64,000 bases of DNA from Eledone cirrhosa (lineage: Eukaryota): NCBI GenBank assembly GCA_964016885.1, contig OZ024741.1, positions 318,742,001 to 318,806,000 of the forward strand. Direction: 5' to 3'. The notes beneath the pieces are model-generated. The model was not told the DNA's origin, did no database searches, and was given only the letters and a program-made list of their open reading frames with translations. The stretch's first letter is position 1; the number at the start of each line of letters is the position of its first letter. The position numbers were made by a program, and so were the translations under genes. Positions 3,300-63,548 of the stretch are shown piece after piece.

Positions 3300-3728
3300 A
3301 ATAAACCTTTCAAGGAACTTACACCAGTCCAGCCTCCTCTTATTCTATAATAATTAACTCCGTACTCGCACCACCAACTACACAAACGAAGACGGGTGAG
3401 TTGCATTACGTCGAATGCTCTCCATAATATTTCATCGAGGTTGACCATACGGAATGACCAGTTCTATCCAGTTCTATCCAGTGGTGGACCAACAAACCTA
3501 AATAATATATATATATATGTGTGTGTGTGTGTGTTAGTGTGTGTGTGTGTGTGTGTGTGTGTGTGTGTGTGTGTGTGTGTGTGTGTGTGTGTGTGTGTGT
3601 GTGTGTCTGATCTCTCGGATTTTTTCGAAGCGCTGAAGGGACGGATAAAGTTATTGCAAAGAGTGGTGTGCAAATCAGCGAAGGAGCAGAGTGGGTATAA
3701 ACGAAGATATGAACCCGACAGCGACACC

Positions 3729-5270
3729 TATATATATATATATATATATATATATATATATATGTATATATATATATATATATATATATATATATATATA
3801 GGTGTGTGTATATATATAGATATATATATACGTATATCTACATATCTCTATATATATATAAATATATATATATAAATATATAACGTATGTATGTGTATAT
3901 GTATATGTATATATATATATATATATATATGTGTGTGTGGGTGTATGTATATATATATATATATATATATATATATATATACATATATATATATATATAT
4001 ACGCATACATATACATATATATACATATACATATATATATACATATATATATATACAGATATATATATACACATAAATATATATACATATATATACATGT
4101 ACATATATATATATACATACACATATATACATATATATACATATATATATATACTATACATATATATAGAGAGAGATATGTAGACATACGTATATATATA
4201 CATACATATACACACACACACATATATATATATATATATATATATATATATATATATATATATATATATACAGACACAAACACACACACACATATATATA
4301 TATTCAAATCAACAGACAGCGAAAGACGCGTTCCGAATTGTCCGACAGACAACCTTTTCCCCCACCCCGAAAAAACCCCAGTTGATGGATGTGAATCCGA
4401 AATATATAGGGACTATTAAATCTCTCCCAATGTAACTCTCTCTCTCTCTTGTGTTGTTATTATTATTTTTATCCTTTTACTCTTCCCTCCATTCTACACA
4501 TCTCACACATCTTATACACACCACGCATCTCAACGTACACCCAATTACATCTCTCTCTCTCCACCACCGGACCTTGTTACCCGGAGATTTACCCATTTGC
4601 ATTGTCGAGGCTTCCAAACGACTTATAAATATTTATATATATATATATATATATATAAGGTTCGATCTGTATAGATTTCAAGGTTCAATCTGTGTATATA
4701 TATATGTATATATATACATATATAACGTATGTATGTATATATGTGTGTATATATATATGTATATATGTGTATATATATATATATATATATATATACATAT
4801 ATATATGCATACATATATATACATATATATATATATATATACATATATATATATAAATACGCATACATATATATACATATATATACATATATATATATAT
4901 ATATATACCCATACATATATATACATATATATATACATATATCCATATATATACACATAAATATATATACATATATATATATACATAAATATATATACAT
5001 ATATATATATATATACATATATACATATACATATATATATATAAATATATATATATATATATATATATATACATATATATATACATATATATATATACAT
5101 ATATACATATATATACATATATACATATATATATACATATATATATATATACATATATATACATATATATATATATATACATATATATATATAGATATAT
5201 ATACATACATATACACGCACATATATATATATATATACAGACACACACACACACATATATATATATACAT
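3729..5270. repeat. (TA)n/(CATA)-rich microsatellite blocks with an embedded ~330-bp non-repetitive insert (about 4300-4630)
   Basis: Direct reading. Confidence 0.95.
4376..4411 (+). ncRNA. Degenerate hammerhead motif
   Basis: CCC-CAGTTGAT (2 mismatches to CTGATGAT)-GGAT gtga ATCC-GAAA-TATA-TA-GGG. Confidence 0.45.
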
Positions 5271-5308
5271 ACAAAGGACGATTTGTTATGTCTTCATTAC
5301 GTTTACTG

Positions 5309-5342
5309 AGTAGTGACGCGCGTTTCGCTACTGATCAGCTCA
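5309..5342 (-). ncRNA. Partial hammerhead (3' half)
   Basis: Minus strand GA-GCT gatcagt AGC-GAAA-CGCGCG-TC-ACTAC; the CTGAT part is replaced by the adjacent inverted-repeat element. Confidence 0.5.
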
Positions 5343-5430
5343 AGGTTCGATCTGTATAGATTTAGCCCGATTCTGGACTATTATCACAGCAAAGGTCCGA
5401 CGAACTAGATCGATACAGATCGAACCTTGA
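5340..5430. mobile_element. Small fold-back / MITE-like element with ~26-bp inverted termini
   Basis: tcaaggttcgatctgtatagatttag ... ctagatcgatacagatcgaaccttga; partial copies of the terminus at 4657-4695. Confidence 0.7.
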
Positions 5431-5778
5431 GTGCTCACTCTGGTGAACCTACGGTAACAGGACGTTACAATTCCTATATATATATATATATATATATATA
5501 TATATATATATATATATATATATATATGTGTGTGTGTGTGTGTGTAAAGAAGAAGTTATATGGTTTGTTGATTATTATTCAACAAAGTTATTTTTATAAC
5601 AGACTGGAAGTAATCTACAGAATTTATCTGGAGTATTATTAATATCAACAATATTAATAAATGGAAAATATCATTTATAATACCATATTTATTTTATTAT
5701 ACGTAGCGAGCTTATACTATTAAGACTATGCTAAGATATTTCAATATCTTAACACCAAATATTATATTTTATCTAATG

Positions 5779-5965
5779 TGGTGGATTGGCAGTATCGGTA
5801 GAGGGTCGAACGCCATGCTTTGACGCATAGAGTTACGGCCCTTTATGATCTGAGTTCAAGTCCCGCCGAGGTTAACTTTGCCTTTCATCCTTACGGGTTC
5901 GATAAAATAAAGTACCAGTAATGTACTGGATAATTGCTGGCCTTGTGCCAAAAGTAGAAACAATT
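5779..5965 (+). mobile_element. tRNA-derived SINE with Nin/Deu-like central domain, ~18-bp TSD
   Basis: A-box-like TGGCAGTATCGGTAG, B-box GAGTTCAAGTCC, core GCCTTTCATCCTTACGGG.TCGATAAAATAAAGTACCAG; TSD attatattttatct(a/g)atg at 5761-5778 and 5963-5980. Confidence 0.9.
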
Positions 5966-5966
5966 A

Positions 5967-61371: not shown

Positions 61372-61572
61372 AAGATGAAATCGAAAATGCAACTGGAGTC
61401 TTATTTTTTTTTAAATATATATAAACCGGTAAAGGAACCAAATAAATATATATTTTTTTTTTTAAAATAAGACTCCAGTTGCATTTTCGATTTCATCTTT
61501 TTTTCTTTATACTTTCACTCGTGTAGGACACCTCTGTTATTTTTCATTTTGTAAAGAAAACCTCACTTTCTA
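61372..61572 (+). mobile_element. Fold-back element (about 50-bp arms) with tail, between microsatellites
   Basis: aagatgaaatcgaaaatgcaactggagtcttatttt / aaaataagactccagttgcattttcgatttcatctt. Confidence 0.75.
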
Positions 61573-61590
61573 ATATATATATATATATAT

Positions 61591-61762
61591 AATATAGAAA
61601 AGGCTTGTACAGGACTTCGGGAGGAATCATCAGGGCTTCCTGATGATTTCTCCCAAATTAAACAGTTCTAGTCCTGTAGAAGCCTTTTCTATATTAAAAA
61701 TGTATACTCTGCTATGTATTGAGTGCCTTGCTTACTGTGGTTACCCCCGACTGAACCCGCAC
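61591..61762 (+). mobile_element. HHR family A fold-back element (HHR 61634-61684, GAAA changed to TAAA)
   Basis: GGCTTC-CTGATGA-tttctcccaaat-TAAA-CAGttctagtcCTG-TA-GAAGCC plus tail. Confidence 0.85.
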
Positions 61763-62097
61763 AAATATATATATATATATATATATATATGTACATTTAT
61801 ATATATATATATATATATATATATATATATATATATATATATATATATATATATATATATATATATATATATATATATATATAAATGAGAGGTATAGAGA
61901 TTGTTTTAGCGAGAAGCTAACAGCATTCTATAACATATATATATATATATATATATATATAATTAACCATTACTACATCTAGGATAATCCTATACCTAAT
62001 ATATATATATATATATATATAGAGAGAGAGAGAGAGAGAGAGAGAGAGAGAGAGAGAGAGAGAGAGAGAGAGAGAGAGAGAGAGAGAGAGAGAGAGA

Positions 62098-62455
62098 GAA
62101 TAGAAAACGAAAAATCAGTAATGCATCTGAACTCAATTTATTGTGTGTTACAATTGTTTCCCCGGCGGACAGCTCGAGACGCGATCATTGTGTGGATCTG
62201 TCTGCTTCTGGACCTGCAGGTTCGACGGACACGTCTAATGATTTCGGAGTATATTCTCTGTGAGAGTGAGAGAATATGCTCCGAAATCATTAGACGTGTC
62301 CGTCGAATCTGCGGATCCAGAATCAGACAGATCCACTCAATGATCGCGTCTCGAGCTGTCCGCCGGGGAAACAATTGTAACACACAATAAATTGAGTTCA
62401 GATGCATCACTGATTTTTCGTTTTATATTCTATCATACTCTGCTCAACCGGCTAT
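62098..62455 (+). mobile_element. Family C ~330-bp near-perfect palindrome with a variant HHR-like fold
   Basis: Arms about 62098-62259 and 62269-62430; third arm copy at 63005-63160(-). Confidence 0.85.
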
Positions 62456-63189
62456 GGAAGCATCTTAGCTACCATCTAACATATACACACACACAAAAAT
62501 ATATATATATATATATATATATATATATAAATATATATATATATATATATATATATATAAATGAAATGTATAGAAATTATTGTAGCAAGAAGCCAACAGT
62601 ATTCCATAATATATAAGTGACTATAGCGTCAAAATAGGAAAATAGTTAACGTAAGATGTGGGAAAAATAATTCAAACTCAATTCAAAAAGAATCAGGATA
62701 TAGATTTATCCAACAGAATTTAGTGAAATCCAGGGAAAACTCAATAGAGCCTTAACTCATGATAAAACAAAGTTTAAAATACTCATCCTTCAATTTGGAA
62801 CAACTACAAATGCTCTGTATAGTCTTGAAAAGACTATTTCACGAAAACTTTCAGTGACGATGGACACGGTTGGAATCCGATCGTCAGCAGAGCTCAACAT
62901 GATAACCAAAATCTCACTGATTAATATGCCAAAAAGGGAATTTAAAAGCAGGCTAGTTTAACATCATGCGTGATTATGAAAATAAAACGCACATGTGGAA
63001 AAAAACAGCCGGTTGAGCACTCTATGCTCTTACAGAGCAGAGTATGATAGAATATAAAACGAAAAATCAGTGATGCATCTGAACTCAATTTATTGTGTGT
63101 TGCAATTGTTTCCCCGGCGGACAGCTCGAGACGCGATCATTGAGTGGATCTATCTGATTATATATATTTGTGCGTGTGTGTATATGTTA

Positions 63190-63548
63190 GATGTGTAATA
63201 ACAACAGTTACAGGCGGCACGCCGTTCGAAGCACTCGATGCTGTTACGAGGTCCGTTTCGTTAAGGTGTATTCCAGTGTTACGGTTGTAGTGTGCAGAGT
63301 GTAAATAGATTTACAAGAGTTGAAGTCAGTGTTGCAGCATATGTACAAATTTTATTTGCATATTACAATTGTCTCGATATCGATCAGTGCATTTGCACTT
63401 ATCAGCTCGCATATCTGACGAGATGTCGAAAAAGAGTCGGGCCCCGTCACCTTGATTGCACACTGAGCTGATAGATATTGAAACAATTGTAATATGCAAA
63501 TAACGTTTGTACATATGCTGTAACACTAACTTCGACTCTTTTAAATCT
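63190..63548. mobile_element. Fold-back HHR element (arms about 63307-63385 and 63465-63548)
   Basis: Inverted arms plus a minus-strand tail carrying ACTC...GAGTGC. Confidence 0.8.
63409..63497 (+). ncRNA. Hammerhead ribozyme with long stem II
   Basis: GCATAT-CTGACGA-GATGTC...GATATT-GAAA-CAATTG-TA-ATATGC. Confidence 0.75.

Follow-up and report, generated by a model that had tools for sequence, protein, structure and literature searches.

A conserved, duplicated bulged stem in register with the insertion ends of Hydra-clade Penelope-like elements

The window considered here is a stretch of 64,000 nucleotides of microsatellite-rich, animal-type DNA from Eledone cirrhosa (assembly GCA_964016885.1, 3.0 Gb; contig OZ024741.1, forward strand, positions 318,742,001 to 318,806,000). 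It holds inserted ends of Penelope-like elements (PLEs) of the Hydra clade, in which a conserved, partly covarying bulged stem lies downstream of a hammerhead ribozyme and is followed, in read-through copies, by a second such stem. Insertion ends fall at two places in register with the stems, and two-armed insertions nearly always combine one short with one long arm. With a probability of about 0.6, the stems serve as two RNA docking sites for the reverse transcriptase (RT)-endonuclease of the element, which would fix where reverse transcription begins, some 5-6 nt upstream of either stem. The motif is a real, clade-wide cis element of a known class of elements, and apparently one that has not been described.

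The original prediction held that the arms ACTC and GAGTRC recur after the hammerhead, near the element end, in otherwise unrelated families, and the letters and coordinates of these pairs are correct at all eight sites that it cited. Enrichment over background was confirmed for a sharper form of the motif and barely at all for the loose pattern. With local dinucleotide shuffles as the null, loose ACTC…GAGTRC is found 20 times in the window (shuffled mean 5.7, maximum 16) and 119 times in 20 additional 50-kb blocks, placed irrespective of content and two of them flanking the window, against 80-86 in shuffles, a weak, 1.4-fold excess. Many loose sites are copies of few families (19 clusters, the biggest of 23 copies), and false positives occur. 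The strict descriptor, RCTC–helix–loop–helix–UN bulge–GAGY-RCT, which was built from the window and the first eight blocks, is found 13 times in the window against 0.17 in shuffles (maximum 1), and 56 times in the 20 blocks against 1-5. Its hallmark is an inner helix that is set off by exactly two unpaired 3'-side bases between the outer arms: among 154 loose sites, an inner helix of at least 3 bp is present in 57 at a bulge of 2, and in 5, 9, 8, and 8 at bulges of 0, 1, 3, and 4, respectively. In the first 464 kb, 27 sites have the bulge of 2, against 1-4 in shuffles.

The motif is a feature of Hydra-clade PLEs, an assignment made from protein and element marks. The marks of this clade include DKT, a CxCX5C linker, C-terminal CxxC and CxH, a canonical hammerhead, (TA)n targeting, and inverted and tandem insertions (Craig et al., 2021, PMC8557442), and they are also found among the families described here. 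Copies of family G have frames of 715-760 aa with an RT and, at the C-terminus, a GIY-YIG endonuclease, and family B has open frames of 784-786 aa in a 3.54-kb tandem. DKG is changed to DKT in families B, C, D, E, and G; the C, D, and E loci hold the N-terminal part only, and the other protein marks were scored for G and B, both of which have the CxCX5C linker, no CCHH (by eye), and the C-terminal CxxC and CxH. Among 120 homologues, DK[TS] is present in 114, the linker in 109, and RWK in 74; at this N-terminal position the families here have mostly RWR, with RWI in G and RWK in one E copy. The canonical type I hammerhead near the 3' end and the insertion into (TA)n were found as well. The predicted structure of homologue P0014 has TERT as its top fold match, which confirms a TERT-like RT; it gives no location for an RNA-binding site. 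Pfam GIY-YIG matches the window fragment with an E value of 0.0024, below its cut-off, and Pfam gave no match for the long ORF. A search for homologues with the 108-aa endonuclease fragment gave no match, and no relative was found in viral contigs. In the genome, one endonuclease query yielded 52,055 first-look candidates. Neptune/Nematis elements are marked by a CX2-5CxxC linker and a CCHH motif in the endonuclease; a first assignment to Neptune was dropped, as G and B carry CxCX5C instead and lack cysteines from GIY to YIG.

Copies of B, C, D, E, and G run on into their own Hydra ORF, and the short 'families' of the window are therefore mostly 5'-truncated ends of coding elements. These five are, on the sequence of such copies, truncated 3' ends of coding Hydra families. 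Family A probably is one too: one of its copies is situated 1.4 kb behind a fragment of a Hydra RT/endonuclease, the two being separated by an inserted repeat. The families are unrelated inasmuch as no DNA alignment links them, but identity among their ORF pieces is 43-53%. The idea that the signal lets non-coding families use the PLE enzyme is thus not supported for these families, and the one clearly non-coding tandem hammerhead family examined, a 516-nt unit, lacks the motif in the stretches examined. Besides its type I hammerhead, the 516-nt unit (G000:C6, block L051-L055, about 26.7-27.3 kb into the block) has an internal (TA)n, and 10 members of its hammerhead group are found in 1.06 Mb. 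Animal non-LTR retrozymes also have type I hammerheads and have been proposed to be mobilised by PLEs (bioRxiv 10.64898/2026.07.22.740005); in contrast to these, the families here are ends of coding elements. In the same 1.06 Mb, the motif lies downstream of the hammerhead in at least one copy for 8 of 13 multi-copy hammerhead groups, with a descriptor that misses family B. In that family, stems I-III of the hammerhead are in place (L289:1330-1420) and the 5' core is non-canonical, CUGANGA being found in none of the read-through copies seen. Judging from near-identical 3.54-kb tandem units, family B is apparently young, and its core may be a variant or inactive.

The stem is also present in PLEs of other taxa. 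An alignment of 52 Hydra-type proteins led to 96 foreign loci, 77 of them from metagenomes and 19 from prokaryotic bins, and the 91 hammerheads at these loci form 50 groups (one of them over-merged). A stem lies within 200 nt of the hammerhead in 37 of the 50 groups, and two stems do in 18; among the 13 groups without a stem are copies whose end precedes a stem or coincides with that of the contig. The stems number 55 in all, compared with 2 for the antisense strand and a shuffled count of 0.28. Stem 1 is placed 30-61 nt past the ribozyme cut and stem 2 another 57-83 nt on, 13-40 nt ahead of the first ATG in 17 of the 18 groups. Positions -8..-5 before the stems are AT-rich, with a TA peak at -6 (26/55). 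In published Hydra consensi (PMC8557442), the stem is readable by eye in three of six, namely Hydra-2_Amil, Hydra-2_Ajap, and Hydra-1_Ajap, the last with both stems, at the 5' end; a variant form is present in a fourth, Hydra-1_Crog. In a word search bearing on Naiad and Chlamys consensi, six 9-mers of the 3' arm were met eight times in the supplement of that study, four times with full stems, among the six Hydra consensi, and four times elsewhere without an evident in-register 5' arm; line breaks and trimmed tails limit such word matches. Several prokaryotic genome bins of marine host-associated origin hold full or partial Hydra PLEs (L270-L288), most likely as contamination by host DNA.

The anatomy of the stem was drawn from 71 sites defined by their outer arms only (56 foreign and 15 from this genome). 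The first inner pair is formed at a bulge of 2 in 67 of them, and at bulges of 0, 1, 3, and 4 in 4, 3, 11, and 27. The first bulge base is U in 68 sites, the second is never G, and T follows RC in 70. The outer pair is G-C in 59 sites, A-U in 9, and A-C in 3, with G-C in 53/56 foreign sites and A-U in 9/15 sites of this genome. Compensatory changes occur in the stem among other organisms, and inner pairs 1-3 of stem 1 covary strongly over loci whose proteins have a median identity of 49% (0/2000 permutations each, figures that are not probabilities because the families are not phylogenetically independent). Stem 2 retains mainly one inner C-G pair. Base counts also reveal a degenerate palindrome, AGYRCT, within the 3' arm. 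With Rfam covariance models, five loci whose stems are intact gave no match at E<=1, a test that was insensitive since Rfam missed the hammerheads of the same five loci too; on the window, the 150 listed of 451 Rfam matches are mostly simple-repeat miRNA artefacts, and nothing relevant is among the matches listed. The view of the motif as a conserved cis-signal that is tied to the PLE enzyme, for priming or processing, is well supported by its position, covariation, and conservation across taxa. What had been noticed at the outset did not include the two-nucleotide bulge, the covariation of the inner helix, a second stem, or the placement of ends upstream of the stems.

How the stems relate to the ends of insertions is seen in read-through copies, which were sought with genome-wide patterns made of a family's long end followed by RCTC. 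In such copies of this genome, a second stem lies 78-99 nt downstream of stem 1, ahead of the ORF. It was first met in tandem copies of family G, whose long end passes into the second stem and then on towards the ORF, and was found together with a Hydra ORF for B, E, D, and C by patterns set prospectively. For family B there are 445 pattern matches (some places counted twice); the 15 loci read represent 11 distinct places, all 15 have the second stem, and 11 run on into a Hydra ORF, one of them being the 3.54-kb tandem. For E, D, and C, with 43, 34, and 12 matches, 10 loci each were read, most of which show the second stem and then a Hydra ORF.

Insertion ends belong to two classes, being placed just before stem 1 or just before the would-be stem 2. 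The claim that the motif sits near the element end is accurate for long-ended copies, which stop about 45-70 nt after stem 1, and does not apply to short-ended ones, which stop just before it. In 1.06 Mb, 75 of 96 copies of B, C, D, E, and G end at (TA)n, and when scored against read-through references, the junction interval overlaps -9..-3 of a stem in 64 of the 75 (27 at stem 1, 37 at stem 2); position -5 lies within 56 of the intervals and -6 within 55. In DNA run X1, which is possibly the assembly's own sample, 62 contigs switch to (AT)n behind L289:1443 and 290 do so behind 1523, the two stems having their first bases at 1449 and 1527, and contig depth drops about 300-fold beyond the long end of family B; runs X5 and X6 had too few contigs to be used. 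Between the two ends lies the optional tail of PLEs, and stem 2 is absent from inserted ends. The tail is given as 30-40 bp in PMC8557442, in comparison with the stem-to-stem distances of 78-99 nt here and 57-83 nt in foreign loci.

The two end classes are coupled in two-armed insertions. Among 53 head-to-head arm pairs of the same family within 1.2 kb, 9 with one unclassified arm were set aside; of the remainder, 41/44 combine a short and a long arm, two are long+long, and one is short+short. Independent use of the two ends predicts 22/44 (binomial P about 8e-10), and the bias is seen in families B, A, E, D, I, L, and G, the sole C pair being long+long. By this count, both starts are used together in a single event. 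That the tail is present on one arm only had been noted earlier (PMC3846280; PMC8557442). The arms also bear on how the motif lies relative to the hammerhead: it follows a hammerhead on the same strand at four of the eight cited sites (hammerhead cores at 3246, 26302, 47309, and 55834), and does not literally do so at the others. At the A and 63300 sites, the complete hammerhead core is in the inverted 5' arm (7256- and 63415+), and the B and C copies of the window have only the 3' half of a hammerhead upstream of the stem. In 15 loci picked by similarity to a fold-back copy of family A (window 61616-61760; L357-L371), the fold-backs turn at nearly one place, just 5' of the hammerhead core, which suggests a preferred point of 5' truncation or template switching. 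A fold-back of family I (window 5640-6070) is broken by a SINE-like repeat (5780-5962), its long arm spanning about 5640-5705 (-) with a degraded stem. Hydra ends of different families are also nested in each other's (TA)n flanks, in clusters at 7050-10800, 25400-27300, 46990-47560, and 53170-55990.

In the mechanism proposed, the twin bulged stems between the hammerhead and the start codon would fold in the element RNA, and the RT-endonuclease would dock onto them. The docked protein would place the AU-rich template stretch at -8..-5 on the nicked (TA)n primer. The protein, for which a dimer is predicted in the case of the anole PLE, would nick both strands of the (TA)n target, one nick being extended from the AU-rich template immediately ahead of stem 1, and its partner from that immediately ahead of stem 2. 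Both cDNAs would meet at their truncated 5' ends, yielding a head-to-head insertion with the tail (stem 1 and spacer) on one arm only. Two docking sites with two starts would therefore explain the one-sided PLE tail. Since no end includes a copy of stem 2, full templates would be provided by tandem read-through copies only. An isolated long-ended copy retains just stem 1 and would thus give stemless daughters, so that lasting non-coding partners would need read-through units with stems.

A biochemical precedent is found in Poseidon, a PLE of the anole (Anolis; Frangieh et al., 2024, PMC11167929), in which two internal RT starts bound the tail, as the two stem-registered ends do here. Reverse transcription there requires RNA 3' of the start, an AT-rich target is nicked and extended on both strands, and a dimer is predicted. 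The anole PLE needs RNA to +172, with one start at +111-118, which fits a binding site 3' of the start. Poseidon is of another clade, however, and parts 1-2 of 4 of that paper define no conserved or duplicated binding motif.

Several points weigh against the docking of an RT-endonuclease on RNA stems. The biochemical precedent, that of the anole, is from a different clade. Family B provides 52 of the 75 scored ends, ends beyond the reference span were left out of that count, and TA microhomology blurs the junctions. Read-through was not found for families A and L in the loci read (10 of 121 matches and 3 more, 2 of 2, and 10 of 96), in which the junctions are microsatellite or rearranged only. 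The mapping of ends is noisy in foreign loci, where 9/10 TA-ending and 7/15 other ends lie <=12 nt before a stem. The inner helix of stem 2 is weak, its pair 2 being formed in 9/18 cases and its covariation not significant, and the same dependence among families tempers the permutation figures for stem 1. Single-sequence folding failed to form the stem in 4 of the 8 cited window copies (D, G, C2, and F). Folding is also strand-neutral, with an outer-helix probability of 0.69 in sense and 0.72 in antisense, and G-U over A-C counts favor the sense strand by merely 10:3.

The neutrality of folding would equally suit a motif that acts as DNA, either as a hairpin of single-stranded cDNA or as a duplex, with the GIY-YIG endonuclease cutting or resolving a longer intermediate 5 nt away. 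The palindrome AGYRCT in the 3' arm would agree with this, as would the requirement of the Penelope tail of D. virilis for recognition of plasmid DNA by the endonuclease (cited in PMC11167929) and the attribution of the tail to endonuclease-mediated resolution by Craig et al. (PMC8557442). However, pairs that covary around a variable loop argue against duplex recognition, G-U still exceeds A-C, and stem 2 is missing from inserted ends, as expected if it was never copied; recognition as DNA is unlikely. It is also unlikely that the stems direct cleavage of the RNA about 5 nt upstream, by the element protein or a host nuclease, and that the resulting 3' ends then serve as end-primed templates. 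Such pre-cleavage predicts the same genomic ends, and anole RNA-seq reads do end where inserts end; the anole protein nevertheless starts internally on unprocessed RNA in vitro (PMC11167929), and one would expect independent use of cleaved templates, which by itself would not give 41/44 short+long pairs. A role of the stems in translation, promoter activity, or RNA packaging in the 5' leader, with AU-rich stretches alone setting the ends, is very improbable. While the proximity of stem 2 to the first ATG and the AT-rich stretch with its TA peak would accommodate it, AT-rich stretches abound in these UTRs, yet the ends are gathered at two places of fixed register, with stem spacings of 78-99 nt, and those of the two arms are coupled. 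As for the chance recurrence of a short palindrome in AT-rich repeats, to which the small excess and false positives of the loose pattern lend some color, it is refuted for the strict motif by the counts in blocks (56 vs 1-5) and foreign loci (55 vs 0.28) and by covariation.

Within the docking model, a more specific and rather doubtful version, built on analogy, is that each subunit of a dimer might grip one TAR-like arginine-sandwich stem through an arginine patch and prime one strand 5-6 nt upstream, the stems acting as a ruler. TAR needs U23, the pair A27-U38, and the flanking pairs G26-C39 and G28-C37, with base 24 free, and a 2-nt bulge is the HIV-2 form (PMC6189040; PMC11885821). Like the arginine sandwich of HIV-1 TAR and 7SK, the stem here has a Watson-Crick pair, a bulged U, a free second base, and then G-C, A-U, and G-C. 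The bulged U is present in 68/71 sites, the preceding pair is formed in 67/71, and a Y:R closing pair together with the U is found in 66/71. G-C, A-U, and G-C follow the bulge in 52/55 foreign stems, the middle pair being free in the descriptor and both G-C pairs fixed by it; the A-U pair is altered in the other 3/55, which speaks against the likeness. The single-U bulge after C in family L, the one family here whose bulge is shortened, matches 7SK ASM4 (C62, U63, A65-U44). On the other hand, the loop here closes the other helix, in a circularly permuted arrangement, an unpaired RCU follows, and the role is different. The resemblance is offered as a lead: it is post hoc, a small motif can match by chance, and no homology is claimed. 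Candidate stem-binding arginines might be those of an R-x-R patch (conserved at 94% and 98%) before W[FY]NPP, between the thumb and the linker, in a region with a mean of 3.3 R in 14 aa against 0.7 expected; this patch could equally be a nuclear localisation signal. The RW[KR] motif of Hydra proteins has two conserved arginines as well.

The features of the window are collected in Table 1.

Table 1. PLE-related features of the window, with positions counted from its first nucleotide.
Feature	Position	Strand	Basis or remark
Type I hammerhead, family F	3242..3299	+	core at 3246, descriptor
Stem 1, family F	3357..3418	+	long loop; one outer-helix mismatch (one changed letter in 3' arm)
Complete hammerhead, family A, inverted short arm	7207..7263 (approximate)	-	paired arms; core at 7256-
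Stem 1, family A, long arm of fold-back insertion	7298..7318	+	pattern, arm pair
Stem 1, family B (coding Hydra), long arm; short arm ends about 10162	10271..10296	+	read-through, arm pair
Stem 1, family A, outside original prediction	10404..10424	-	strict descriptor
Stem 1, family B, outside original prediction	10626..10651	-	strict descriptor
Stem 1, family B, outside original prediction	25536..25561	-	strict descriptor
Stem 1, family A, outside original prediction	25861..25881	-	strict descriptor
Type I hammerhead, family E	26297..26355	+	core at 26302
Stem 1, family E, 7-bp inner helix	26407..26448	+	pattern, read-through
Stem 1, family B, outside original prediction	27191..27216	+	strict descriptor
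Stem 1, family B, degraded	47112..47137	-	strict descriptor
Type I hammerhead, family D	47301..47367	+	core at 47309
Stem 1, family D	47420..47446	+	pattern, read-through
Stem 1, family A, outside original prediction	53249..53269	+	strict descriptor
Inverted short arm, family G insertion, ends before stem	53346..54025	-	hammerhead 53432-
Broken GIY-YIG endonuclease fragment, Hydra-clade family G	54219..54542	+	CxCX5C linker
Type I hammerhead, family G, direct arm	55826..55896 (approximate)	+	core at 55834
Stem 1, family G	55939..55958	+	7-nt deletion vs family; intact in other copies
Stem 1 variant, single-U bulge, family L	61138..61159	-	hammerhead in inverted arm 61197+
Stem 1, family A, outside original prediction	61706..61726	+	strict descriptor
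Stem 1, family C, 6-bp inner helix	63017..63043	-	pattern, read-through
Stem 1, family C2, 52-nt loop	63231..63300	-	hammerhead in inverted arm 63415+

A few candidate sites were rejected. A recurrent loose match, 'K', sits within an apparent LINE ORF; site 6632 is probably a chance match, with an adjoining SINE-like repeat and a G at the second bulge base, which is seen in 0/71 real sites; and the stems at 63300 and 63043 are not a twin pair, as they belong to two different families. A repeat search of the window was swamped by microsatellites. LINE-type RT ORF fragments lie on both strands at 13633-18765. A second type of PLE is found at 21900-22700 (-), around 22270-, and at L155:5646-7300; it has a cysteine-rich endonuclease region and a short-stem hammerhead, is Neptune/Nematis-like by eye, and lacks the bulged stem in the stretches examined. 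A short terminal sequence ahead of (TA)n is common to its ends and is met again beside other insertions. The hammerheads at 52622 (-) and 62887 (-), with a long or branched stem II and a longer stem III, represent two further families, and no stem lies within 200 nt of them.

In titles and abstracts, the literature other than subscription literature and Repbase notes yielded no conserved or duplicated stem at the ends of Hydra or other PLEs. Word searches of the parts covered of PMC8557442, PMC3846280, PMC4209133, and the 2026 retrozyme preprint found no such stem described. In PMC8557442, the word 'hairpin' is absent from the main text and no stem is annotated in the passages and supplement parts covered; the words tail, hairpin, and stem have 0 occurrences in the covered parts of the preprint.

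The origin of the one-sided tail and the inverted arms of PLEs has been flagged as open (PMC8557442; PMC11167929), and the twin stems make this question directly testable. Conservation at about 49% protein identity, a fixed register to both ends, and the 41/44 coupling make direct experiments possible. The twin stems also provide an exact boundary rule for the annotation of Hydra elements, which are abundant in this genome. If the dimer-ruler version is true, one RNA would template both insertion arms at once, which would account for inverted arms and the one-sided tail, and stems of about 25 nt would constitute a portable cis-signal for RNA-templated insertion into (TA)n. As the RTs of PLEs are sister to telomerase, a defined RNA element for binding and template positioning would bear on the origin of telomerase-type template definition.

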